IMG/VR virus record: IMGVR_UViG_2690316285_000010
Strand: one strand, 5' to 3'
DNA from: a virus
Taxonomy: Duplodnaviria; Heunggongvirae; Uroviricota; Caudoviricetes
Length of the DNA: 41,117 bases
In this document: piece by piece, positions 1,936-41,117 of the stretch
How positions within the stretch are numbered: position 1 is the first letter of the stretch
How the letters are laid out: each line of letters opens with the position of its first letter
Translations under genes and position numbers: made by a program
The notes under the pieces: model-generated
What the model saw: the letters and a program-made list of their open reading frames with translations, nothing else
Databases searched by the model: none
Told to the model about the DNA's origin: nothing

Positions 1936-2916
1936 CTAACGTCCTGCTTTTAACAATAACCAGATAAACACCGGCGCACCCAACGTTGCGGTGACCACGC
2001 CAATAGGCAGCTCTGCGGCAGCTAATGCCAGGCGCGCTACAATATCGGCCAGCAGCACTGCGCTCGCCCCTGCCAGCGCGCAGCCGGGAAGTAATACGCG
2101 ATGATCGGTTAAACCACACAACCGAAGAATATGTGGGATCACCAGACCAATAAAGCCGATAGCACCCGCCAGCGCCACACTGACGCCAACCATCCAGCCG
2201 GTCGCTGCCACCAGCACATTGCGCCAGAACCACAGGGGTAAACCCAGTTGCCGCGCCGAGATCTCGCCAAGTGCTAACATATTCATCGGCCTGGACTGAC
2301 AACAGATCCACAACAACACGGGGATCAATGCCAGCATCAGCCAGCTTTGCCGCCAGTCTACGCCGCCAAAACCGCCCATCATCCAGTACATCAGCTGACG
2401 TAAATCAACAGAGGTGGAAAAGTAGATAGCCCACGTCATTAGTGCGCTACAGATAATCCCTAATGCAACGCCAGCCAGCAATAACCGACTGGTCGAAAGA
2501 TGACGACGGGCGAAACGTAAGAGTATTAAAGTGATGATAAGCGCGCCAGCAATCGCACACAGCCCTAGCGCCCAGTTGGGGAGTTGCCCTTGCCCAAGCA
2601 ATACCGCGGCGATAAGCCCCACGCCTGCGCCGTTAGAGACGCCAAGTAGTCCAGGTTCTGCCAGAGGATTTTCAAACAACGCCTGCATTACAGCGCCGGA
2701 TATAGCCAGCGCCGCACCAACCAGCAATACAGCCAGCGTACGTGGCAGGCGAATTTGCCAGACGAACAGTTCGCCACGAGGAGTAAACCAGTCACCTGGC
2801 GAAATCCATTGTTCACCGGCGCAAAGGCTTAAGAGAAGCGCCAGCAGCATCAAAACTGACAGGCATAATAACCAGCGAATATTTTGTCGCTGTTGTTGGC
2901 GGGCAAGTGTCAGCAT
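1936..2916 (-). CDS. btuC: vitamin B12 ABC transporter permease
   Basis: 326-aa polytopic membrane ORF, FecCD-type permease; first gene of the btuCED operon. Confidence 0.93.
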
Positions 2917-2972
2917 GGTATCCGTTCTGCTGAAGTGTCATGGCGTTGATTTTACGGTGACTCTTCGACAGT

Positions 2973-2999
2973 GAAAAGAAAAAAGGCCGCAGAGCGGCC
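2973..2999 (-). terminator. rho-independent terminator (minus-strand orientation)
   Basis: GGCCGC-AGAG-CGGCC hairpin at 2985-2999; on the minus strand it is followed by TTTTTTCTTTTC. Lies between the stop of ORF 3109-3663 and the btuC start. Confidence 0.6.
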
Positions 3000-3108
3000 A
3001 TAAACACAAACAAAAATCAATAAGTTAGGTAATTATCAAAGACTTACAGACACACAAAAACACAGCCAACCACAACAAATAACAGAGATGTGGTCAATTT
3101 GTGGATCA

Positions 3109-3663
3109 TCAGCCAACAAATTTAGCAACAAATACAGCAACCGCCGCTGTGAAAATGGTTGTGCACACTGGCACAATAATGCCACTCCAACGCCACTTCG
3201 TATTATCATCAACCTTGTCAAACCGCCGATTCATCTCATCCATAATCTTGTCAAAGCGTTTATCCATCGCTTCGGTAAGCTCACCCTTCAGGCTGTTAAT
3301 GTCTGATTTGAGCTGCTCTTTCAGGTTAGCTGTATCAGATTTAAGCTCACCTTTCAGATTCGCAATATCGCATTCAAGATCACCTTTCAGATGTGCTATG
3401 TCTGCTTTGAGTTCACCTTTCACCTCACCAACATCGGCTTTAGTTGAGAGGTTTGTAGTGCGTTCAGCAAGCGTCGCAAGGTCGTTTCTTGTTAGCGATA
3501 AATCACCTTCGAGCCGCTCAATTCGCCTTTCAAGTTTATCTGACATTCCGCCTCCACTACTGCCGCCATCGCCACCATGATAAAGCACATCACGCTCAGA
3601 ATGCGACACACTACCTGCTGAATTACCGAAAAGATTTCTTGCTACATTACCCATTATCACCAT
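3109..3663 (-). CDS. hypothetical membrane-anchored protein with five 11-residue repeats and a C-terminal transmembrane helix
   Basis: ORF track. Translation shows Gly-rich N-terminus, ~5 tandem 11-aa repeats (KADIAHLKGDL/ECDIANLKGEL...) and a C-terminal hydrophobic helix. A better-supported start may be the ATG at 3546 (GGAGG 5 nt upstream), giving 145 aa. Confidence 0.5.
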   Translation of the reverse strand: MVIMGNVARNLFGNSAGSVSHSERDVLYHGGDGGSSGGGMSDKLERRIERLEGDLSLTRNDLATLAERTTNLSTKADVGEVKGELKADIAHLKGDLECDIANLKGELKSDTANLKEQLKSDINSLKGELTEAMDKRFDKIMDEMNRRFDKVDDNTKWRWSGIIVPVCTTIFTAAVAVFVAKFVG

Positions 3664-4147
3664 CCTGCGCTTTGTCTTTCTCCAACCACTTCAGCACCGC
3701 AGACGTACGATAAAGGCTCAGGTAACCACAATTCAGGCAATGCAGCGTGTAATAAGTTTTGCGCATATCAGGTATGCTCTTAACATCACCCAAAAAAGCA
3801 TAAGATACATAATGCTTTATGTTCTCTTTAATTAACTCACTCTGTTCCTCCAGGGGTAGATTGTTAAAATTTTCTGGTTTCTTATTTTTATCCCAGCAAA
3901 GATCCATACTTTCTGGAACAGATAATCGCGACGATCCACATGAAGGGCAGACACTGGAGACCCCCTTCTCAGACAAGAAACGGAAGAAGATTTCTGGCGT
4001 AATCTCCATCAGCCGCTCTTTATGTTTTTTGACACGACTCATCGACTTCTTATTGATTTCATCAGCTTCTTCTTTGCATTTATCTTCTATATATTTCGAT
4101 AGTAAATAGTCATATAACTCTTTTTTTGTAGGTTTTTTTATTTCCAT
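3647..4147 (-). CDS. hypothetical Lys-rich protein with two CxxCG motifs (possible zinc ribbon)
   Basis: 166-aa ORF directly downstream of int; visibly AT-rich coding sequence unlike its surroundings; CPSCG ... CLNCG motifs. No family recognised. Confidence 0.5.
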   Translation of the reverse strand: MEIKKPTKKELYDYLLSKYIEDKCKEEADEINKKSMSRVKKHKERLMEITPEIFFRFLSEKGVSSVCPSCGSSRLSVPESMDLCWDKNKKPENFNNLPLEEQSELIKENIKHYVSYAFLGDVKSIPDMRKTYYTLHCLNCGYLSLYRTSAVLKWLEKDKAQDGDNG

Positions 4148-4149
4148 AG

Positions 4150-5127
4150 TTACATTCCTCCCAAGGGATTAAACCTCACCGCATCCTGCAAGTAATCCGG
4201 CGCAAGATGGGAATAAATCATCGTTGTCTGAATCTTTGCGTGCCCCAGAATTTTCTGGAGCGTCAGAATATTGCCGCCGTTCATCATGAAATGACTGGCG
4301 AAGGTGTGGCGCAGCGCATGAACAGCCTGGCCGTCAGGAACATCAGGTGCGACCGTTTTGATGACATCGCGAACCAATGAATAATCCAGCGTCGGAAACA
4401 CCAGTTTCCCGCCCCGTTTTTTGATCTTTTCAAACAGGCTTTCAGAAATAGGAACGGTACGGTTTTTGCTGTTCTTCGTTTTTGAAAAAGTGATTCGACA
4501 ATGAAGAACACGGCGCTGCTCCAGTGCCGCTACCTCGCCCCATCGCGCCCCGGTCGACAGAAGGATTTCGACGGCCAGCCGTTCATCGGGATTTTCAGCC
4601 AGTGCATCCAGCAACTGAACACATTCAGACTTACTCAGATATCCCATTTCACGCTCGTTAACCTTCATTCCTTTAAGGCCTTGAACGGGGTTATCGTTAA
4701 GAAAATGGCCGGATGAGATGAGTGCGGTAAACATCGCGCTTAACGCCCCAATCTCTCGATTTATGGTGCTGGGCTGTATCCCCTGCTCTATCCTGGACAC
4801 ACGTAGCTCGGTGAGCATCGTTGTATTAAGTTTATGCACGCACGGGTCATCCATTGCCTCACTCAAGCGCAGCAATTTAAGGCGCGTGTTATGCCCTGAC
4901 TTCATTAGCTGGCCGTGGTATTTCCACCACAAGTCAATAAGCACTGACAGCGGACGGCGATCAATGGAGTTTCCTTTCCACTCATTGTTATGCTGTTGCG
5001 CCAGCACCCACCGCTCATATAAAACTGCATCCGATTTCGTTTTAAATTTTTTGCGAATGCGTTTGCCTTTACGCCCCTCAGGACGCATGTCAAGAAGATA
5101 CCCTCCCGGAATTGATTTTATGCTCAT
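4150..5127 (-). CDS. int: P2-type tyrosine integrase
   Basis: Strong similarity to P2/186 integrase as remembered, including the C-terminal HxxR...Y catalytic region (HALRHTFASHF ... MIYSHL). Start placed at MSIKS by alignment to P2 Int; the ORF-track start at 5277 is an upstream in-frame extension. Confidence 0.9.
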   Translation of the reverse strand: MSIKSIPGGYLLDMRPEGRKGKRIRKKFKTKSDAVLYERWVLAQQHNNEWKGNSIDRRPLSVLIDLWWKYHGQLMKSGHNTRLKLLRLSEAMDDPCVHKLNTTMLTELRVSRIEQGIQPSTINREIGALSAMFTALISSGHFLNDNPVQGLKGMKVNEREMGYLSKSECVQLLDALAENPDERLAVEILLSTGARWGEVAALEQRRVLHCRITFSKTKNSKNRTVPISESLFEKIKKRGGKLVFPTLDYSLVRDVIKTVAPDVPDGQAVHALRHTFASHFMMNGGNILTLQKILGHAKIQTTMIYSHLAPDYLQDAVRFNPLGGM

Positions 5128-5176
5128 TCGTGAAGCCCCAGCGTTACAAGACCACCATGCCCCCAGCGTTCCATGA

Positions 5177-5488
5177 TTAGCCGGGCTGTGTGCCAGTCTT
5201 GCGGGATTTTTGAGAAGACGATGTGTTTTCTGGCCCATCAGGGGAGAGAGAAGGACTGATCTGCCCAGCAGCCTCATTTGTTTCGTTACTCATCAACCAC
5301 GTAGTGTATTTTTTAAATTCCGGGTGCATTGTGATTTTCAGTAAAACCTCCGTTCCCACACCTCGAATACCAGTCTCGTATTGCTTAACCGTACCAACCG
5401 CAATACCTATTGAATCCGCGAACTTTGCCTGACTAAGCCCCTCAGATTCTCGAATTGCTTTTAGCTTCTTTGATATCTCTATTGACAT
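5177..5488 (-). CDS. P2 C-type immunity repressor (HTH)
   Basis: Small HTH protein (start at MSIEIS) upstream of and co-oriented with int, divergent from the early operon; resembles P2 C in size and layout. Confidence 0.7.
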   Translation of the reverse strand: MSIEISKKLKAIRESEGLSQAKFADSIGIAVGTVKQYETGIRGVGTEVLLKITMHPEFKKYTTWLMSNETNEAAGQISPSLSPDGPENTSSSQKSRKTGTQPG

Positions 5489-5511
5489 GGTGTGCACCTG
5501 AATACTATATT
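5482..5511 (+). promoter_or_regulatory. candidate sigma70 early promoter (Pe-like)
   Basis: TTGACA at 5482-5487, 18-bp spacer, TATATT at 5506-5511, facing the cox-like gene. Flanked by inverted GGTGTG...CCT...TA repeats at 5489-5504 and 5557-5575. Confidence 0.5.
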
Positions 5512-5583
5512 GGTTATCAGTTGAGTACCACTTGACGCTACAAAGAGCCACAAATAGCACCAGATTGAATAGGTTATCACACC

Positions 5584-5862
5584 ATGGCAAAAGTCCTTAA
5601 CACATACGAACAAGCGGATTTTGAGCGTTTGGCGGCGTTCTACCCATACCGTAATGAACATGGGCTACCGGTACTTGAAGAAAGCCTAGAGGATTATGCG
5701 AAACGCACAAATCAAAGCATTCTCGCTGTAAGAAGGCAGGCTGATAGATCGGTAATTCCCGTTACTCAAGAAGGAAGAAACACAAAACGCAAAGTAAATC
5801 TCTTCGCAATTTTCCTGAAAACCATCAGAAACGCAGAGAAATACGTGCAGATGACAAAATAA
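5584..5862 (+). CDS. putative Cox/Apl-like early regulator
   Basis: 92-aa first gene of the rightward early operon, divergent from the repressor; called by position only, sequence does not match P2 Cox as I remember it. Confidence 0.4.
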   Translation: MAKVLNTYEQADFERLAAFYPYRNEHGLPVLEESLEDYAKRTNQSILAVRRQADRSVIPVTQEGRNTKRKVNLFAIFLKTIRNAEKYVQMTK

Positions 5863-31904: not shown

Positions 31905-32481
31905 CCTGACTCTTCTCTATTGTTCCGATTGATTCTCCTGCGGGGTGGTAACGATAAATCGTCGATATACCAATGCCGTAAATTATTGCCAGTTGTTTTC
32001 TGTCGTGCCCGTTTTTGATCAGCCTTGCTATTTGCTCATGCTGTTCTTTTGTCAGCTTCGGTCGACGTCCGCCTGTGCGCCCCCGTGCGCGTGCTGCCGC
32101 CAGTCCGGCCAGTGTACGTTCAACAATTAATTCACGTTCCATTTCAGCCAGGGCACCCATCACGTGGAAGAAAAAACGCCCCATTGGAGAAGATGTATCT
32201 ATGCTGTCGGTCAGACTGCGAAAATTAATTCCTCGCTCCCGTAGTTCCCCGACGAGAGAAATCAGATGTTTCATGCTTCGCCCGAGGCGATCCAGTTTCC
32301 AGACAACCAGCGTGTCACCTTTTTGAAGGCGCTTTAAAGCGCGTTTTAATCCCGGTCGGTCTGTCTTTGTCCCGCTTAATTTATCTTCAAATATTTGTTC
32401 ACATCCTGCACAAACAAGAGCGTTTCGTTGCAGGTCTGTATTCTGGTCATTTGTTGATACCCTTACATAGCCAATCAGCAC
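31894..32481 (-). CDS. pin: serine DNA invertase (Pin/Gin/Cin/Min family)
   Basis: [36 protein letters not shown]... is close to e14 Pin through the catalytic domain (Ser in VRVSTNDQ), C-terminal HTH diverged. Start placed at GTG 32479-32481; ORF track uses TTG at 32499. Confidence 0.88.
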   Translation of the reverse strand: MLIGYVRVSTNDQNTDLQRNALVCAGCEQIFEDKLSGTKTDRPGLKRALKRLQKGDTLVVWKLDRLGRSMKHLISLVGELRERGINFRSLTDSIDTSSPMGRFFFHVMGALAEMERELIVERTLAGLAAARARGRTGGRRPKLTKEQHEQIARLIKNGHDRKQLAIIYGIGISTIYRYHPAGESIGTIEKSQETK

Positions 32482-32535
32482 GCTGAATCTCCCGTCCAAA
32501 AGCGCAAATCATGCCATGCAGGCCGGAAACGGCCA

Positions 32536-32561
32536 TTATCTAAAACCTCGGTTTACAGGAA
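32536..32561. other. invertase crossover site (gix/pix-like), site 1
   Basis: TTATCTAAAACC-TC-GGTTTACAGGAA: two 12-bp inverted half-sites around a 2-bp core, near-identical to the Mu gix site as I remember it; 55 bp from the invertase start. Confidence 0.8.
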
Positions 32562-32670
32562 ACGGTAAACAAGGCTGGTAACGCCGTGCAAAAAAATGGC
32601 GATACGTTGTCCGGTGGACTTACTTTTGAAAACGACTCAATCCTTGCCTGGATTCGAAANNNNNNNNNNN

Positions 32671-33260
32671 TCTTCTATTGTACGACGGTGTTCGTCAAAA
32701 GCTAATTGTCGCCAGGGACTTTCGAATGAGTATTTGCTGAGCCAGCGTCGGTGTGCAGGGCCCCAATCTGCTCGCCCGACATAATGGACCCCATGAACCA
32801 GAAGAAACGATTTCAGACGTTGCCTTGCATGCCGTAAATCATCGCGGGCAGATGCCCATGCCCGGGCCAAATCCCGGAATGCCTCATCTTCAATGCCGGG
32901 TACGTAGACAGCAGAAAGATCTCCTGCACGCAGTGAACGCACAAGTCTGATGGCATCACGGCGATCGGTTTTAACCCGCTCCCCCGGTTTTTTCGGGATA
33001 AGTGAGGGGGCGCAGACCATGCAGTCAAAACCGGATTTCACCAGCCGACGATAAAGTCCATAACCACAGGGCCCCGCTTCATAAACGATACTGACCTGCG
33101 ATGACTTTGACCTGAGACGTTTACAAAGATTCTGAATATCAGTAGGTGATGTGCCAATTTTACCCATCAGTTCAACAGGTTCTGAATTGATAGCATAAGC
33201 GACAGTAATCGATTCTTTGTGAACATCTAACCCGACGTACAATGTGTTATTGTTGTTCAT
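32671..33260 (-). mobile_element. 5' part of an IS110-family (DEDD) transposase gene, cut off by N-run 32660-32670
   Basis: N-terminus MNNNNTLYVGLDVHKESITVAYA... is typical of IS110-family transposases (and related Piv-type invertases). Only about 196 codons precede the gap. Confidence 0.6.
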
Positions 33261-33386
33261 GCTGGCCTCCGTGGTGGAAATACCGGGGTGTAGCAACAGC
33301 TCACCCATGCGGCTCTGACAACGATGTTAACCCGCGTTAAATATCCCACGTTGGCCAGCATCTGTCTCACGGAAAGTCATACTGCC

Positions 33387-33656
33387 TTACATTGTGTCTG
33401 GTTCTTCCGGCCACTCAATATCAGGTGCAGTTGATGTATCAACACGGTTCAGCAACACCCGATACTTCTTCCAGGCTTCCAGCAACGAGTTTTCTTCCTC
33501 CGTTGCGATCTCCAGATCTACAGCATCCTGAAGTGGCGCAATATGCTCACTGAATTCCTGGATGTAGAACTGTGTGGTGACGGTCTTCCAGCCATTCGGC
33601 TCCTGCTGTATCGAAGCATACCAGGCTATTTCAATATCGCTATGCTGCGGCAGCAT
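33387..33656 (-). CDS. short tail-fibre-assembly-like protein (C-terminal domain only)
   Basis: 89-aa ORF ending ...[28 protein letters not shown], the conserved C-terminus of Tfa proteins; N-terminal half unlike the other Tfa copies here. Confidence 0.5.
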
Positions 33657-33712
33657 TTAACCCCTTGTAATTCATCGCCATAATTGATTTAATTCACAAA
33701 TAAAACTATAAT

Positions 33713-34381
33713 ATGGTGAAATTAATGAAAAAAAACACAGATGATGGGGCTAAAATTTACACACCACTTACCCTAAAGCTTTATGACTGGTGGGTTTTGG
33801 GAGTATCAAATCGGCTTGCATGGGGATGTCCTACAAAGGAACACCTTCTTCCACACTTTCTGGAACATTTAGGTAACAACCATCTGGATATTGGTGTTGG
33901 AACTGGGTTTTACCTTACTCACGTACCTGAGAGTAGTCTGATATCTTTAATGGATTTGAACGAAGCTAGCCTGAACGCGGCATCTACAAGGGCTGGGGAA
34001 TCAAAAATTAAACATAAAATTAGCCATGATGTTTTTGAACCTTATCCCGCGGCGTTACATGGTCAATTTGATTCCATTTCCATGTTTTACCTTCTTCACT
34101 GCCTGCCTGGAAATATATCTACAAAAAGCTGTGTAATACGCAATGCGGCGCAGGCCTTAACTGATGATGGAACTCTATACGGAGCCACAATTCTTGGCGA
34201 TGGAGTTGTGCACAATAGCTTCGGTCAAAAACTGATGCGCATTTACAATCAGAAAGGCATCTTTTCAAACACAAAAGATTCCGAAGAAGGCTTAACACAT
34301 ATACTCTCAGAGCATTTCGAGAATGTTAAAACCAAGGTTCAAGGTACTGTAGTAATGTTTTCCGCTTCAGGGAAAAAATAG
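33713..34381 (+). CDS. class I SAM-dependent methyltransferase (substrate unknown)
   Basis: 222-aa ORF with motif I LDIGVGTGF; AT-rich coding sequence; followed by a hairpin CCGCAGCACGT...ACGTGCTGCGG at 34390-34422. Confidence 0.6.
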   Translation: MVKLMKKNTDDGAKIYTPLTLKLYDWWVLGVSNRLAWGCPTKEHLLPHFLEHLGNNHLDIGVGTGFYLTHVPESSLISLMDLNEASLNAASTRAGESKIKHKISHDVFEPYPAALHGQFDSISMFYLLHCLPGNISTKSCVIRNAAQALTDDGTLYGATILGDGVVHNSFGQKLMRIYNQKGIFSNTKDSEEGLTHILSEHFENVKTKVQGTVVMFSASGKK

Positions 34382-34579
34382 CATCCAACCGCAGCACGTT
34401 CTTGCTTAAGACGTGCTGCGGCATAATCCCAATGATTACTCCCTGACAGGGTTCGTAGGCCACTCAATATCAGGTGCAGTTGATGTATCAACACGGTTCA
34501 GCAACACCCGATACTTTTTCTAGGCTTCCACCACCAGCACGACAAGATGCCGCATACAGTGACCCAGTCAGTCCAGTTT

Positions 34580-34780
34580 TCAGACAACCAGTGCGTCACC
34601 TTTTTGAAGGCGCTTTAAAGCACGTTTTAATCCAGGTCGGCCTGTCCTTGTTCCGCTTAATTTATCTTCAAATATTTGTTCATATCCTGCACAAACAAGA
34701 GCGTTTCGTTGCAGGTCTGTATTCTGGTCATTTGTTGATACCCTTACATAGCCAATCAGCACGCTGAATCTCCCGTCCAA
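34580..34780 (-). pseudogene. diverged 5' fragment of a second invertase gene (about 66 codons)
   Basis: Translates to [19 protein letters not shown]...LQKGDALVV*; differs from the intact pin at several nucleotides (C->Y, K->R, D->G, T->A), so it is not an assembly duplicate. Confidence 0.6.
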
Positions 34781-34816
34781 AAGCGCAAATCATGCCATGC
34801 AGGCCAGAAACCGCCA

Positions 34817-34832
34817 TTATCTAAAACCTCGG
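34817..34832. other. crossover site 2 (left half visible; rest in N-run)
   Basis: TTATCTAAAACCTCGG then N-run 34833-34923; sequence after the gap resumes CGGTTTACGAGAAC..., a variant right half. Confidence 0.5.
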
Positions 34833-34923
34833 NNNNNNNNNNNNNNNNNNNNNNNNNNNNNNNNNNNNNNNNNNNNNNNNNNNNNNNNNNNNNNNNNNNN
34901 NNNNNNNNNNNNNNNNNNNNNNN

Positions 34924-35897
34924 CGGTTTACGAGAACTCGGCACAAGCGGGGAGAAAATACCGTTACTCAGTACAGCGAATACCTGGACTAATCGACAAA
35001 CATTCAGCGGTGGCCTTTCTGGTGAACTATCCGGCAATGCTTCTACAGCTNNNNNNNNNNNNNNNNNNNNNNNNNNNNNNNNNNNNNNNNNNNNNNNNNN
35101 NNNNNNNNNNNNNNNNNNNNNNNNNNNNNNNNNNNNNNNNNNNNNNNNNNNNNNNNNNNNNNNNNNNNNNNNNNNNNNNNNNNNGTGCGTTTGCCTTAGG
35201 GAAAACAGGAAGCACCGTTGCGAATGATAAAGCAGTTGGATGGAACTGGAGTAGCGGAGCCTATAACGCAACTATTAGTGGTGCATCAACGTTAATTATT
35301 CATTTTTATAATTAATCCGAAACTGAGCTGCAGGACAACTTCCTTCTCCCATATAAAAATGGCGGTATTTTTTATCGTTCAGCCCGTGATGGTTATGGTT
35401 TTGAAGCCGACTGGTCCGAATTTTACACCACCAGAAAACCTTCAGCAGGAGATGTTGGTGCACTGCCGTTATCTGGTGGTCAACTGAATGGTGCACTGGG
35501 TATCGGAACATCCAGTGCTCTTGGCGGTAATTCGATTGTATTGGGTGATAATGACACGGGCTTTAAACAAAAAGGCGATGGTAATCTGGATGTTTATGCT
35601 AATAACGTCCATGTTATGCGCTTTGTCTCCGGAAGCATTCAAAGTAATAAAACCATAAATATTACGGGACGTGTTAATCCCTCGGATTACGGTAACTTTG
35701 ATTCCCGCTATGTGAGAGATGTCAGACTTGGCACACGAGTTGTTTAGACCATGAAGAAAGGCGTGATGTATGAAAAATCAGGCCATGTAATCACGGGGCT
35801 TGGTATTATCGGTGAAGTCGATGGTGATGATCCGGCAGTATTCAGACCAATACAAAAGTTAATTAACGGAACATGGTATAACGTATCGCAGGTATAA
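34924..35897 (+). pseudogene. tail fibre variable C-terminal domain (P2 H-like type), disrupted
   Basis: Encodes ...TWTNRQTFSGGLSGELSGNASTA, (gap 35051-35184), ...[21 protein letters not shown]..., ...[18 protein letters not shown]...[18 protein letters not shown]. Interrupted by a 41-bp inversion (35311-35351) and an in-frame TAG at 35745. Confidence 0.6.
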
Positions 35898-35899
35898 TC

Positions 35900-36131
35900 A
35901 TGCAGCATTTAAAAAACATTGTCGCAGGTAATCCAAAAACCGTTGAACAATACCAGCTAACAAAGAATTTTGATGTTATCTGGTTATGGTCCGAAGATGG
36001 AAAAAATTGGCATGAGGAATTAAAAAACTTTCAGGAGGATACAATAAAACTGGCTTACACAGTTGAGGGAATAATTATTGCTATAGACAAGGATGTATCA
36101 GCAATTAATCCAGAAGGTTTAAGTGTCGTTG
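35900..36131 (+). CDS. tail fibre assembly protein, N-terminal part (P2 gpG-like), cut off by N-run
   Basis: [37 protein letters not shown]... matches the Tfa/P2 G N-terminus; ends at N-run 36132-36142. Confidence 0.65.
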
Positions 36132-36142
36132 NNNNNNNNNNN

Positions 36143-36450
36143 CCGGTCGGTCTGTCTTTGTCCCGCTTAATTTATCTTCAAATATTTGTTCACATCCTGC
36201 ACAAACAAGAGCGTTTCGTTGCAGGTCTGTATTCTGGTCATTTGTTGATACCCTTACATAGCCAATCAGCACGCTGAATCTCCCGTCCAAAAGCGCAAAT
36301 CATGCCATGCAGGCCGGAAACGGCCATTATCTAAAACCTCGGTTTACAGGAAACGGTAAACAAGGCTGGTAACGCCGTGCAAAAAAATGGCGATACGTTG
36401 TCCGGTGGACTTACTTTTGAAAACGACTCAATCCTTGCCTGGATTCGAAA
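36143..36450. repeat. exact 308-bp copy of 32352-32659 (invertase 5' end plus crossover site 3 at 36327-36352)
   Basis: Base-for-base identical to 32352-32659 by eye; each copy has an N-run on one side. Confidence 0.8.
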
Positions 36451-37363
36451 TACTGACTGGGCAAAGATTGGGTTTAAAAATAATTCGGATGCAGACACCG
36501 ATTCCTACATGTGGTTTGAAACAGGCAACAACGGCAATGAATATTTCAAATGGAGACACCGCATCATTGGCACCCGGCCTAAAGACCTGATGAATCTTAA
36601 ATGGAATGCTTTGTCTGTTCTTGTTGAAGCCCTTTTCAGCAGTGAAGTGAAAATATCGACAGTCAATGCACTGAGGATATTTAATTCATCTTTTGGTGCC
36701 ATTTTTCGTCGTTCTGAAGAATGCCTGCATATCATCCCTACACGAGAGAATGAAGGGGAAAATGGTAATATAGGGCCACTACGCCCCTTTACGCTTAATC
36801 TCAGAACTGGCCGGATAAGCATGGGGCATGGTCTTGATGTTACAGGGGATATATTTGCAAACCGTTTTGCAATTAACAGTAGTACCGGCATGTGGATTCA
36901 TATGCGTGACCAGAATGTTATTTTGGGACGTAATGCGGTATCCACTGATGGTGCTCAGGCTTTGCTCCGTCAGGACCATGCCGACCGCAAATTTATGATT
37001 GGCGGTCTGGGAAATAAGCAATTTGGCATCTACATGATTAATAACTCAAGGACAGCCAATGGCACCGATGGTCAGGCGTACATGGATAATAACGGGAACT
37101 GGCTTTGCGGCTCGCAAGTTATTCCCGGCAACTATGGCAATTTTGATTCCAGATATGTGAAAGATGTTCGACTTGGTTCACAGCAATATTATGGAGTGAA
37201 CAACTGGCAAACATGGAATTTTCAGTGCCCGTCAGGCTATGTACTGACGGGGATTAACGTACAGGATACCGGAAAAAACTCTGCCGATAATATTGCAGGC
37301 GTTCATTACAGGCCAGTGCAAAAGTATATAAATGGCACTTGGTATAATGTGGCGAGTATTTAA
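36377..37363 (+). CDS. tail fibre variable C-terminal domain, cassette A
   Basis: Frame is open from within the crossover site ([19 protein letters not shown]...) to ...[17 protein letters not shown], the conserved tail-fibre tip end; would be expressed only when fused to the constant part. Confidence 0.7.
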
Positions 37364-37364
37364 T

Positions 37365-37892
37365 ATGATGCACTTAAAGAACATAAAAGCAGGTAATGCT
37401 AAAACAGTGGAGCAGTATGAGTTAACAAAGAAGCACGGAGTCATCTGGCTTTACTCTGAGGACGGAAAAAACTGGTATGAGGAAGTGAAGAACTTTCAGC
37501 CAGACACAATAAAGATTGTTTACGATGCAAATAATATTATTGTCGCCATCACCAAAGATGCCTCCACGCTTAACCCTGAAGGTTATAGCGTCGTTGAGGT
37601 TCCTGATATTACAGCTAATCGTCGTGCTGATGATTCCGGTAAGTGGATGTTTAAGGACGGAGCTGTGGTTAAACGGATTTATACGGCTGACGAACAGCAA
37701 CAACAGGCCGAATCACAAAAGGCCGCATTGCTTTCCGAAGCTGAATCAGTCATCCAGCCGCTGGAACGCGCTGTCAGGCTGAATATGGCAACAGACGAGG
37801 AACGCACACGACTGGAAGCATGGGAACGCTACAGTGTTCTGGTCAGCCGTGTGGATACGGCAAAGCCAGAATGGCCACAAAAGCCTGAGTAA
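37365..37892 (+). CDS. tail fibre assembly protein, cassette A
   Basis: [11 protein letters not shown]... to ...[26 protein letters not shown]; start 2 nt after the variable-domain stop. Confidence 0.8.
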
Positions 37893-37912
37893 AAATTAAG
37901 GCCCGATANNNN

Positions 37913-37938
37913 NNNNNNNNNACCTCGGTTTACAGGAA
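37913..37938. other. crossover site 4 (left 9 bp inside N-run 37909-37921)
   Basis: Visible part ACCTCGGTTTACAGGAA identical to sites 1/3, followed by the same [15 protein letters not shown] junction frame. Confidence 0.6.
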
Positions 37939-37983
37939 ACGGTAAACAAGGCTGGTAACGCCGTTCAGCGTTCCGGCGATAAA

Positions 37984-38879
37984 ATGACCGGAGAACTGAA
38001 AATTGGCACGGTGAATGCGCTGCGAATTTTCAATGATACCTTCGGTCTAATTTTCCGTCGTTCAGAAGATTTTCTTCATTTCATTCCGACGGCTGAAGGA
38101 CAAGGCGAAAACGGTAATATCGGCCCATTAAGGCCATTCGCTATAAATCTGAGAACAGGTGCTATATCTGTCAGCCACGGGGCCAAAATTAAAGGAGGTC
38201 TAGCTATTGGAGCTACTGATAACGCACTGGGTGAAAACTCCATTGTTCTGGGAGATAACGACACCGGATTTAGGCAAGATGGAGATGGTATTATTAGCTT
38301 CTATTCAAATGGTTCGCGCATCGGACATATTGATGAGTTAGGATTACATCTTTATAAAGATNNNNNNNNNNNNNNNNNNNNNNNNNNNNNNNNNNNNNNN
38401 NNNNNNNNNNNNNNNNNNNNNNNNNNNNNNNNNNNNNNNNNNNNNNNNNNNNNNNNNNNNNNNNNNNNNNNNNNNNNNNNNNNNNNNNNNNNNNNNNNNN
38501 NNNNNNNNNNNNNNNNNNNNNNNNNNNNNNNNNNNNNNNNNNNNNNNNNNNNNNNNNNNNNNNNNNNNNNNNNNNNNNNNNNNTGGTGCGCAAGTTGCGT
38601 CTAGTGGCGATATTTATGGTTCAGTGTGGGAAAACAACTGGTTAAGCACATGGCTGCATAATCATGTCGTTCGGGATATTCGTCTTGGCAGCATTGAATA
38701 TAAAAACGTATNNNNNNNNNNNNNNNNNNNNNNNNNGCGACTACGGCTTTGGCGATGCGTCAGGTTATGTTTTAACAGCCGCAATTAACAGCAATGCGGA
38801 TGATATTGTCGACACTGTTGCCAGAAGGCCAATTCAGAAATTGATTGGGGGAATATGGTACAACGTGGGGAGTGTTTAA
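37984..38879 (+). CDS. tail fibre variable C-terminal domain, cassette B (two internal N-runs)
   Basis: ...[22 protein letters not shown]... to ...[18 protein letters not shown]; N-runs 38362-38583 and 38712-38736 fall inside. Confidence 0.65.
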
Positions 38880-38880
38880 G

Positions 38881-39408
38881 ATGATGCACCTGAAAAATAT
38901 TAAGGCCGGGAATCCGAAAACACCGGAACAATACCAGCTAACTAAAAAAGCGGGCGTGGTATGGCTCTTTTGCGAAGATGGCAAAAACTGGTATGAGGAA
39001 CAAAAGAATTTTCAGCCAGACACCATAAAAATTGCTTACGATGAGAACAACATCATCGTTGCTGTCAGTAAAGACGTTTCAACTATTAATCCTGAAGGGC
39101 TAAGCATAGTTGAAGTTCCTGATATTACGGCAAATCGTCACGCAGACAATAACGGAAAATGGATGTTTCTGGATGGTAAAGTAGTAAAGAGGGAATATAC
39201 AGAACAGGAACTGCAACAACAGGCCGAATCACAAAAGGCCGCATTGCTTTCCGAAGCTGAATCAGTCATCCAGCCGCTGGAACGCGCTGTCAGGCTGAAT
39301 ATGGCAACAGACGAGGAACGCACACGACTGGAAGCATGGGAACGCTACAGTGTTCTGGTCAGCCGTGTGGATACGGCAAATCCTGAATGGCCACAAAAGC
39401 CTGAATAA
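38881..39408 (+). CDS. tail fibre assembly protein, cassette B
   Basis: [30 protein letters not shown]... full-length Tfa, same C-terminal half as cassette A. Confidence 0.8.
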
Positions 39409-39440
39409 AAATTAAGGCCCGATAGCGGGCCTTCTCTCAT
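39409..39440. terminator. bidirectional terminator between convergent Tfa genes
   Basis: GGCCCG-atag-CGGGCC hairpin at 39419-39434 with T-rich flanks on both strands; the same hairpin half precedes N-run 37909. Confidence 0.55.
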
Positions 39441-40146
39441 TCTGGTTGTTCGGGAAACGTTACTGGCAGGCTGGAGGTGTCTGTGGATTCAACCTTCTGC
39501 GCATAGAGCATCCACTCGGTTAATTTTTGTTTATTCTCGTCGGAAATAATGCCCAGCCGTAGCTGTGAGTCCCATAGCTGGGTTTTATCCCTGACGAGCT
39601 GTAGCAGGCTTTGCTTTTCATTTTCCGCTTGTTGCCTCTGCTCTTCCCCGGTATAAGTTCGCTTTATCACTACGCCATCTTTGAACATCCATTTACCTGA
39701 AATATCAGCCCGGCGATTTGCTGTAATATCAGGCAACTCAACGACACTNNNNNNNNNNNNNNNNNNNNNNNNNNNNNNNNNNNNNNNNNNNNNNNNNNNN
39801 NNNNNNNNNNNTTGCTCTTCCTCGGTATAAGTTCGCTTTATCACCGCACCATCTTTGAACATCCAGTTGCCCGAAATATCAGCCCGGCGATTTGCTGTAA
39901 TATCAGGAACCTCAACGACGCTTGCGCCTTCCGGATTAATTGCTGAAACATCCTTTTCAATACAAATAATAACGCCGTTGTGGTCATAGACCATTTTCAA
40001 CGTATCAGGCTGAAAGTTCTTTTGTTCCTCATACCAGTTTTTCCCATCCTCTGTATAAAGCTATTTGATGTTAAATTGTTTCGTTAGCTGGTATTGCTCT
40101 TTTGTTTCAGGATTACCAGCAGAAATGTTTTTTAAGTGCATCATCG
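39437..40146 (-). pseudogene. tail fibre assembly protein, cassette C (in-frame TAG and N-run)
   Basis: Minus-strand reading [36 protein letters not shown]...: TAG where the other copies have TGG (plus 40061-40063). N-run 39749-39811 is flanked by about 90% identical 100-bp sequences. Confidence 0.6.
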
Positions 40147-41117
40147 TTAAATACTCCCCGCGTTATACCACGTCCCATTAATGCAATACTGAATTGGCCT
40201 TGCCTGAGTTGTATCAATTAGTTCATCTCTGTTTGAGTTAACGGAACCGGTAACAACATAACCTGACCTGTCAGACCATCCGGGACCATTCCATGTCTGA
40301 ACAGATAACAGACCACCAAGGCGAATACCTGTAATAAACCTTGAGTTACATTCTGCCTGCGTATATGCACCAACATCTCCCGCAGAGGGTTTGCGGGTTG
40401 TGGTGTAAAACTCTGACCAGTCAGCTTCAAAGCCATAACCATCACGCGCTGAACGATAAAAAATACCGCCGTTCCTGTAATTCACGCGGAACTGTACAGC
40501 AGGGCAGCTCCCCGTATTCATATTGAAGTGGAGGATTAATGTCGATGCGCCACCAATGTTTGCGTTATAGACCCCGCTATTCCAGTTCCAGCCAACAGCT
40601 TTATCATTTCCGACAGTGCTTCCTGTTTGCCCTAAAGCAAATGCAGGTTGTTGATTTTTCGTGTTGTAGTCTCGTCGCCAGCCAGGAGCGTAAGCATCAC
40701 CATGATTAATATAAGTGAATTGAGCGTTAGTAATTCCGCCACCGCTGGACGTGCTCGGCGTGGTAACGCGTATGGTCATTGCGCCGCGAGTGCCAATAAC
40801 TTCCACCACAGCACCTGCAAGACAAATATTTCCGCAACCTGTATCTGTAATGACCTTATTATTTGCATAAGCCCATGAGCCTTTGCACATCCAGTAAGGA
40901 TGGTTAAATGCTCCCTGACTCTCCAGCCACGAAATAAATTGCGCGGTTGTCCAGACCTGACTATCGCCACCAATATTCAGCCATGAGCTATATGCGCGGC
41001 AGGCACCAATATTTTTGGTGAAGGTATCTTTCCCCGGAATATCTGCGCCGTTCTGGTTTTTCTGTAATGCGCCAGAAGCCTGATTTACCGTTTCCTGTAA
41101 ACCGAGGTATTCGATAA
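40147..41117 (-). CDS. tail fibre variable C-terminal domain, cassette C (5' end at window edge)
   Basis: Minus-strand frame open from crossover site 5 ([18 protein letters not shown]...) to ...[17 protein letters not shown]; ORF track lists 40147-40890 from an internal Met. Confidence 0.7.
41092..41117. other. crossover site 5, inverted relative to sites 1/3/4
   Basis: Plus strand TTCCTGTAAACCGAGGTATTCGATAA = reverse complement of TTATCGAATACC-TC-GGTTTACAGGAA. Confidence 0.75.

Follow-up and report, generated by a model that had tools for sequence, protein, structure and literature searches.

What are the two small genes that separate the integrase gene of a P2/186-like prophage from the bacterial chromosome, and what might they do in the cell that carries them? 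The question is raised by IMG/VR virus record IMGVR_UViG_2690316285_000010 (Duplodnaviria; Heunggongvirae; Uroviricota; Caudoviricetes), a stretch of 41,117 nucleotides (nt) that is called the window below and to which all coordinates refer unless another locus is named. It opens with nlpC, btuD, btuE and btuC of the Escherichia coli chromosome (all on the minus strand, up to 2916) and is P2/186-like prophage from 3000 onward. Two minus-strand open reading frames (ORFs) lie between the integrase gene, int, and the prophage boundary, where an earlier note based on the letters alone had put them. Gene A (3647-4147; 166 amino acids, aa) encodes an AT-rich, Lys-rich Cys4 protein, predicted to be a zinc ribbon, of an unclassified family. 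Gene B (3109-3654; 181 aa) encodes a tail-anchored coiled-coil stalk protein resembling the DUF1640/CCDC90 family. Together they are an uncharacterised, conserved two-gene module that is absent from 99% of E. coli. We give an even chance to the reading that A-B is a phage-exclusion or abortive-infection module expressed in the lysogen, in which A is a swappable head on the B stalk.

A conserved pair of genes

A and B occur together. A B-type gene follows A directly in all the loci examined in E. coli, Salmonella and Providencia, whose A proteins are 43-64% identical to the window's A; a copy disrupted by an insertion sequence keeps the same arrangement, and two far more distant A relatives (~20-27% identity) are also followed by a B-type gene. 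The B-type partners range from 100 to 192 aa and share an N-terminal peptide, an LExR(V/I)xxLE helix, a coiled coil and a C-terminal transmembrane helix, with a Gly-rich motif in all except the most distant. The window's own pair is present in 23 of 5426 complete E. coli genomes, and its B stalk in 39. The earlier note had considered that the region might be conserved host DNA. Such an origin is ruled out by the carriage in 23 genomes and by the genomes free of this prophage, whose match to the window stops at 2999 (in K-12, 18 nt past the ihfA stop codon). In Salmonella enterica strain s1 the A gene (L049 4001-4498) is 98% identical to the E. coli one, compared with 58% for the usual Salmonella allele, which suggests recent transfer between genera.

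The two reading frames also overlap in a conserved way. B most likely starts at 3654, where its start codon overlaps the stop codon of A (ATGGGTAA), and this 8-nt overlap is kept as ATGnGTAA/GTGAATAA across E. coli, Salmonella and Providencia. The additional N-terminal residues that this start gives to B are conserved in the same three genera and end in a Gly-rich HGGDGGxGG. Two other starts are less likely: the first ATG of the ORF (3663) and the internal Met chosen by RefSeq (3546, giving 3109-3546 and 145 aa). The RefSeq call drops the 36 residues encoded at 3547-3654.

Gene A and its predicted zinc ribbon

Gene A stands out from its surroundings in composition. Its GC content of 38.5% is lower than that of int (49%) and that of the prophage (52%), and just 0.3% of 500-bp intervals of the prophage are as AT-rich; Lys makes up 13.9% of its residues. 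Two CxxCG knuckles are read from the sequence, C67-P-S-C-G71 (3935-3949, minus strand) and C137-L-N-C-G141 (3725-3739, minus strand), so the AT-rich, Lys-rich protein with two such motifs that the earlier note described is indeed there. Among 55 A relatives, with identity down to 20%, the invariant residues are C67, C70, C137, C140, G141 and W154. The ratio of nonsynonymous to synonymous divergence (dN/dS) between alleles is ~0.2-0.24, and A is therefore a real protein under purifying selection. The family is small. Among 5.8 billion proteins it makes up 18 clusters at 90% identity, and a set of 1.84 billion proteins contains 90 of its clusters at 50% identity; two loci were found in 185,579 GTDB species representatives searched with patterns that reach close relatives only.

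An alignment-based AlphaFold model of A has a mean predicted local distance difference test score (pLDDT) of 94.9 and a predicted template modelling score (pTM) of 0.79. It consists of a long N-terminal helix (8-46), a short helix, a beta sheet that bears the knuckles and a C-terminal helix; the strands (79-83, 110-118, 131-137 and 143-147) lie near or after the knuckles. Two conserved CxxC knuckles with flanking beta strands fit the Cys4 zinc-ribbon fold in general, and metal binding is predicted from them. Closer relatives of the fold did not emerge. Foldseek found none at E < 1e-3 in the PDB or BFVD, and sequence and profile searches of the PDB gave E values of 0.25 or worse, with scattered generic zinc-ribbon matches only. 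In Pfam, the best match was Zn_ribbon_13 at 17.3 bits, below the cut-off of 23; A scored above the threshold of no named zinc-ribbon family (Zn_ribbon_13/DUF2082, Ogr/Delta, TFIIB-type and others), and any one Pfam family was matched by at most 6 of the 55 A-family members. The sole family match of A is PHROG 4293 (8.1e-23), annotated 'unknown function', as is PHROG 9415, which is matched by B (6.5e-15). The possibility, allowed for by the earlier note, that both proteins might belong to well-known phage or host families is not borne out by these matches, and Pfam, NCBIfam and PADLOC returned nothing above threshold for either protein. Neither nucleotide nor tblastn searches of deposited phages and plasmids matched A or the A of the lambdoid type described below. 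The maximal Kyte-Doolittle 19-mer mean of A is 0.67, compared with 2.43 for the transmembrane helix of B. A is probably the soluble 'head' or specificity subunit of the pair.

Gene B as a membrane-anchored stalk

B is built in successive segments, all encoded on the minus strand. Residues 1-25 (3580-3654) form a variable N-terminal peptide, the putative docking site for A. A Gly-rich linker, HGGDGGSSGGG, follows at residues 26-36 (3547-3579) and contains the recombination breakpoint between alleles; most aligned partners (E. coli, Salmonella, Providencia and the lambdoid prophage) have a GG(D/N)GG-type motif, which is missing from the partner at locus L047. At the start of the stalk, residues 69-74 (3433-3450) read LSTKAD. 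In the DUF1640 membrane proteins described by the Lupas laboratory, a beta-layer of the form [aliphatic]-A-T-K-[polar]-[DE] opens the stalk (PMC4786415). The B sequence is a near fit to this 'neck' motif, with S and A at two positions, and the Salmonella partner (FATKSD) is an exact one; K72 and D74 are the sole invariant columns in 22 B-type and DUF1640 sequences. The stalk itself (residues 72-148; 3211-3441) is made of 11-residue repeats, or hendecads: five clear copies of K-x-D-I-A-x-L-K-G-E-L at residues 72-126, then two degenerate ones. At the DNA level TRF reports a period of 33 nt at 3318-3422 (3.2 copies, score 105). Natural B alleles are 148, 159, 170, 181 and 192 aa long, steps that correspond to whole hendecads. 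A single transmembrane helix, IIVPVCTTIFTAAVAVFVA (residues 159-177; 3124-3180; Kyte-Doolittle 19-mer mean 2.43), forms the C-terminal tail anchor, beyond which only 4 residues remain, and all aligned B partners carry a C-terminal hydrophobic segment. About five repeats ending in one transmembrane helix was what the earlier note had read here.

Structure prediction and profile searches give a similar picture. In the AlphaFold model of B, residues 1-33 have pLDDT < 50 and appear disordered, and helices span 37-67, 72-146 and 150-180; the break at 68-71 coincides with L-S-T-K-A-D. Against Pfam CCDC90-like (DUF1640, PF07798), B scores 24.1-24.5 bits (E ~3e-5), below the gathering threshold of 33.5 bits; the family is matched at E < 1e-3 by 9 of the 22 B-type and DUF1640 sequences (best 2.5e-11), and a precomputed table lists PF07798 for P0110, a B relative with 97% identity. 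The B profile weakly matches trimeric beta-layer coiled coils in the PDB (7o92, 6h9l and GCN4 beta-layer fusions, E 0.002-0.06). The beta-layer motif, the sub-threshold CCDC90-like match and the weak trimeric matches together point to B as the neck, stalk and anchor of a DUF1640-like protein that lacks a folded head. The likeness to amphipathic hendecad proteins that had been suggested earlier thus gains a beta-layer motif characteristic of DUF1640, with a Pfam match to that family that is sub-threshold only.

A polymorphic slot and exchange of alleles

An int of the window's type (at least 95% identity) is present in 299 of the 5426 complete E. coli genomes, and the start of the match at the 3′ end of int predicts what lies downstream, in the slot between int and the attachment (att) site (seven cases were verified). 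Type 1, the window's A and B, occupies the slot in 23 genomes. Type 2 pairs a 137-aa A, often unannotated, with B (~15 genomes), and type 3 pairs a 120-aa A with a 146-aa B (~20 genomes). In about four fifths of the int family the slot holds an unrelated 131-aa gene. The counts for types 2 and 3 and for the 131-aa gene are rough, as they are scaled from an even sample of 40 rows of the 299 int matches. Strain EL361 shares its repressor and early proteins with the window, and its int is 99.8% identical, yet it carries the 131-aa gene in the slot. Near-identical prophages with different slot genes show that the pair, which the earlier note had called cargo, is replaceable.

Two observations concern the other occupants of the slot. 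The 131-aa protein (WP_000416308 or WP_000416304; L038 4307-4702, L041 2082-2477 and L052 1182-1577), found for example in O104:H4 strain C227-11, has no Pfam or PADLOC match. The type-2 A, a clear member of the Cys4 family, is unannotated in strains 06-00048, 2D and DEC5B (L039 1241-1654, L040 and L043 2091-2504). RefSeq annotation at A-B loci is wrong or incomplete, then, both in the shortened B and in the missing type-2 A of several complete genomes.

How the alleles differ suggests which parts are exchanged together. The three A types are mutually only ~24-28% identical. Between types 1 and 2 the stalk is 96-99% identical, whereas the N-peptide is 26% and A 28% identical, and DNA homology stops at 3567-3576 (query 459-468), within the codons of the Gly linker. 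A breakpoint at this place implies that the exchanged cassette consists of A and the first ~25 codons of B. Because these are swapped together, we propose that A binds the N-peptide of B. Divergence at synonymous sites (dS) is in line with such an exchange: between the window and a second long-type allele it is ~1.3 for A, against 0.05 for int and 0.09 for B. This fits the recent acquisition of A that the earlier note had deduced from base composition.

The polymorphism bears on two other explanations of the pair. In the first, A-B is a lysogenic-conversion factor that acts on host physiology, for example as a tail-anchored scaffold that holds a zinc-ribbon protein, able to bind nucleic acids or ribosomes, at the inner membrane. 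ElaB and YqjD, which are stationary-phase tail-anchored proteins, would be the likeness here, and a scaffolding role has been proposed for mitochondrial MCUR1 and CCDC90B. Such a factor would suit the neck, stalk and anchor features that B shares with DUF1640/CCDC90, the faint resemblance of A, in fold and in sequence, to the zinc ribbons of RNase P, ribosomal proteins and RNA polymerase subunits (E > 0.4 throughout) and the predicted expression in the lysogen. The extreme divergence of A and the swapping of cassettes within one prophage lineage argue instead for a target that changes fast and against a conserved host machine. Pfam also gave no match to DUF883 (ElaB) or to ribosome-binding families, and the pair is rare, with the stalk in 39 of 5426 E. 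coli genomes and close A relatives in 2 of 185,579 species representatives. A conversion factor is rather unlikely on this balance.

The second explanation is a toxin-antitoxin or addiction module, in which B would be a small membrane toxin, the translationally coupled A encoded upstream would neutralise it through the N-peptide, and the prophage would be stabilised as a result. Overlapping genes for a cytoplasmic and a membrane protein are a layout that such modules share, and B weakly matches holin/XhlA-type families (PHROG 689 at 0.004, PHROG 1193 at 0.023, and Pfam XhlA in 1 of the 22 members). A Hok/Gef toxin at the other att flank of the same prophage shows, in addition, that membrane toxins do reside here. 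That about four fifths of near-identical prophages have an unrelated gene instead means, however, that the pair is unneeded for maintenance. A conserved stalk of 110 residues, a beta-layer and variation in repeat number are hard to square with a simple toxin, and no known toxin-antitoxin family was matched in Pfam, NCBIfam or PADLOC. We consider this explanation unlikely; it also overlaps with phage exclusion, as many toxin-antitoxin pairs work as abortive-infection systems.

Locus layout and predicted expression

The order of genes around the pair hints at when it might be expressed. On one strand, the window has a C-like repressor, int, A and B. The repressor gene, of the C/CI-like helix-turn-helix (HTH) type (5178-5489, minus strand), and the P2-type tyrosine integrase gene directly upstream of A (4150-5127, minus strand) are taken from the RefSeq annotation of a locus with 99.9% identity, and int matches Pfam Int_N (2e-28) and Phage_integrase (1.5e-19). 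The int ORF (4150-5277) runs 50 codons upstream of the annotated start (375 versus 325 aa), and the extension reaches into the repressor gene region at its 3′ end. The genes are tightly packed. The stop codon of int (4150-4152) is 2 nt from the start of A, and a Shine-Dalgarno sequence for A, GGGAGGA (4156-4162, minus strand), is located 8 nt ahead of the ATG, within the 3′ end of int. A consensus scan of the minus strand from the repressor gene to B found neither a promoter-like site nor a strong terminator; the two terminator-like candidates listed there are weak. Because no promoter-like site or strong terminator intervenes between the repressor gene and the att core, we infer a C-int-A-B transcript made in the lysogen, with the repressor gene as the first gene of the operon. 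In P2 itself, int is transcribed together with C.

The first strong terminator-like site after B is a 25-nt sequence, GGCCGCTCTGCGGCCTTTTTTCTTT (2975-2999, minus strand), which lies at the host/prophage junction. Its hairpin and T-run (2999-2985 and the run that follows; 6 G-C pairs, T6) make it the strongest minus-strand candidate in 2850-5800, where three weaker terminator-like candidates were also listed. It is identical to the intrinsic terminator of the host gene ihfA (GGCCGCTCTGCGGCC and TTTTTTCTTT) in prophage-free K-12, and it recurs beside ihfA at the distal prophage end (attR) in O26 strain RM8426, whose locus has 99.9% identity to the window across the 2.4 kb compared (2900-5300). 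A sequence that follows ihfA in K-12 and is shared by the prophage end in the window and the distal end in RM8426 is therefore both the att core (attL in the window) and the ihfA terminator. The earlier note had given the pair its own terminator before btuC: a strong terminator does follow B, and it is not a private element of the pair but the shared att core and host ihfA terminator. The attR sequence was taken from RM8426; none was found in the window, which breaks off within the tail-fibre cassettes and has 852 N. Between the stop codon of B and the att core, 3000-3108 (minus strand) is phage DNA and presumably one arm of attP. It is missing from prophage-free genomes and common to a related prophage with other cargo (the match of DEC9B reaches 3109); no gene and no Rfam family was found in it, and an Rfam scan of 2800-5800 gave sub-threshold matches only.

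The pair is found in more than one setting. In E. coli and Salmonella it occupies the slot between int and attL, and in one relative the att site is another one, beside yhbY and ftsJ. The Providencia pair sits beside ogr, which in P2-type genomes borders att on the opposite side. In a lambdoid/Rac-like prophage A-B comes directly after an S24-type cI repressor and before kilR, which is the place of rexAB and sieB. A divergent A is found in a P2-like prophage of the Morganellaceae, where it shares an int-proximal cargo block with csy1-4.

These settings bear on a further explanation, that the pair is an accessory of the phage life cycle and modulates integration or excision at att, tethers replicating or injected phage genomes to the membrane, or times lysis. 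The pair adjoins int and attP, its Providencia counterpart lies beside the late-gene activator ogr, and A is a Cys4 protein like Ogr. Pfam Ogr_Delta was nevertheless not matched by A at E up to 1. Sister prophages hold an unrelated gene yet keep all core genes, so the pair is dispensable; it also occurs after cI in the lambdoid prophage, which has a different integration and lysis apparatus, and no deposited phage genome carries it (tblastn). A role in the life cycle thus appears quite improbable.

A possible phage-exclusion module

Placement in the immunity operon, dispensability, rapid allele replacement within one lineage and the presence of other cargo nearby are together typical of exclusion and abortive-infection genes, and this is the reasoning behind the reading of A-B as such a module. 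Among the nearby cargo are genes for a Hok/Gef toxin and a PIN protein, both at the other att flank, the ParM gene of the gpA-Q hotspot and, in a relative, csy genes. In a survey of P2-like prophages, the interval between int and att was a minor defence hotspot (3% of P2 systems), and most of the untested genes of unknown function in P4 satellite hotspots protected against phages (PMC13586616).

The pair could work as follows. First, a lysogenic promoter would read through A and B, and translational coupling would yield roughly equal amounts of the two proteins. Second, the C-terminal helix would insert B into the inner membrane, where the TKxD beta-layer and the hendecad coiled coil would trimerise it as in other DUF1640 stalks, so that ~110 helical residues (~16 nm) would reach into the cytoplasm. 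Third, the disordered N-peptide of B, on its Gly-rich tether, would hold A, and A would recognise a component of an incoming phage near the membrane; the count of 11-residue repeats would set the reach of the A head. Fourth, recognition might either block entry or establishment of the phage genome or cause a lethal membrane lesion in the infected cell through the anchors of B. The steps from A-B binding onward are an inference. A bolder form of this proposal sees in A-B a new class of anti-phage sensor, in which a trimeric, tail-anchored coiled coil of the DUF1640 type, its length tuned in 11-residue (~1.6 nm) steps, holds an interchangeable zinc-ribbon specificity subunit under the inner membrane to intercept phage components. 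We offer it as a tentative possibility that is more likely wrong than right.

Several points weigh against phage exclusion. First, we found no paper on the pair, whether in connection with DUF1640 or CCDC90 and phage defence or among tail-anchored exclusion proteins. Second, no defence model in PADLOC-DB v2.0, which covers systems up to 2023, was matched by A, B or the other alleles beyond coiled-coil noise of at most 21 bits: the best matches of B (LmuB, LeoBC and ZorA, 18-21 bits) cover coiled-coil regions only, and A has one 14-bit match (E 0.005). Third, the proteins themselves set limits. B has only ~4 residues beyond the membrane and so cannot touch periplasmic phage parts directly, a single transmembrane helix is a weak candidate for a pore, and the fold of A offers no functional clue. 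Fourth, the pairing is not universal, as in the divergent clade next to csy genes the gene ~190 nt after A encodes not a B-type stalk but a 55-60-aa protein with two hydrophobic helices. Fifth, the divergence of A correlates weakly with that of the N-peptide over nine pairs (Spearman 0.32, p = 0.06), no better than with that of the stalk, which leaves the mosaic breakpoints as the one line of evidence for contact between A and the N-peptide. Finally, transcription of A-B from the lysogenic promoter is deduced from gene order.

If phage exclusion is nonetheless what the pair does, it would be a new system outside the catalogued defence families, with the unusual architecture of a membrane stalk of adjustable length and a swappable zinc-ribbon head. 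It would provide a concrete and easily cloned example (~1 kb) for the int-att slot, so far a minor statistical hotspot. It would also give bacterial DUF1640/CCDC90 proteins their first function and a first experimental handle, and might hint at the ancestral role of MCUR1 and CCDC90B, their mitochondrial relatives, which are still debated. The natural series of alleles (three A types, two N-peptides on one stalk, and stalk proteins of 148-192 aa) makes the ideas of specificity and 'reach' testable by swaps.

Neighbouring genes and related loci

The rest of the prophage follows a familiar plan. Annotation of the RM8426 locus gives the order integrase, HTH repressor, early genes, replication endonuclease, ParM, portal, terminase, capsid, lysis and tail genes. 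In the interval between gpA and portal (L001 27923-30788), this strain has ParM, a partition/stability protein and two hypothetical genes; this interval, gpA-Q, is the classical old/tin defence hotspot of P2. At its other att flank, outside the window (L051 10822-13159), a 500-aa PIN-domain protein is encoded between a shortened gpD-like gene and ogr, and the Hok/Gef toxin gene lies between ogr and attR. The tail-fibre region of the window (32350-40900) contains several diverged cassettes for tail-fibre tips and assembly (repeat families D1, D3 and D4) and runs of N, together with an IS110-like transposase ORF (32637-33308, minus strand) and a methyltransferase-like ORF (33713-34381).

The distant A homologues near csy genes were found in Morganella and on metagenome contigs (L033-L037 and L055). 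They are 141-149 aa long and lie upstream of the 55-60-aa two-helix membrane protein, a DUF305 protein and csy1-csy4; in L055 the csy-containing block comes after an HTH repressor and a P2-type integrase. No CRISPR array and no cas1 or cas2-3 was found in these loci.

Comparison with known systems

Four known systems share features with A-B. The Bdr proteins of Borrelia are inner-membrane proteins borne on prophages or plasmids, with tandem 11-residue repeats of variable copy number and a C-terminal hydrophobic anchor. Their likeness to B is one of description only, and they are not known to pair with a zinc-ribbon partner. The tail of ZorA in the Zorya system may be comparable to B in concept, as a membrane-anchored cytoplasmic coiled coil whose length matters. 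The PADLOC matches to ZorA over the B coiled coil (E 1e-4 to 3e-3, 14-19 bits) are low-scoring and confined to coiled-coil regions, and they are therefore compositional; unlike ZorA, B has no MotA/ExbB-type channel domain and no ZorB, ZorC or ZorD partners.

The DUF1640/CCDC90-like family (PF07798), which includes mitochondrial MCUR1 and CCDC90B and prokaryotic relatives, shares with B the TKxD beta-layer at the start of the stalk and the single C-terminal transmembrane anchor, and RefSeq names B 'DUF1640 domain-containing' or 'CCDC90 family'. Members of the family have a head-neck-stalk-anchor architecture with a folded N-terminal head. In place of such a head, B has a disordered peptide on a Gly linker, and this peptide is not conserved between alleles; B also differs in having a separate protein, A, encoded upstream and in being prophage-borne and allelically swapped. 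B is at best a marginal, headless member of this family, and we know of no function for any of its bacterial members.

The closest parallel in organisation is with RexA/RexB of phage lambda, which like A-B consist of one soluble and one membrane protein encoded as non-essential cargo of a prophage immunity operon. The distant A-B pair of the lambdoid prophage sits right after an S24-type cI, exactly where rexAB is found, and the window's pair follows C and int on the same strand; it thus lies downstream of the repressor as rexAB does, with co-transcription predicted from the arrangement of the genes. The proteins are not alike. RexB is a membrane protein of four helices; B, by contrast, combines a single C-terminal helix with a long stalk of the trimer type, and A, a 166-aa predicted zinc-ribbon protein, is unlike RexA; neither A nor B showed homology to RexA or RexB in Pfam, NCBIfam, PHROG or PADLOC, and there was no fold match. 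Although not a demonstrable member of the Rex family, A-B would, by analogy, work most like a prophage exclusion pair of the Rex type.

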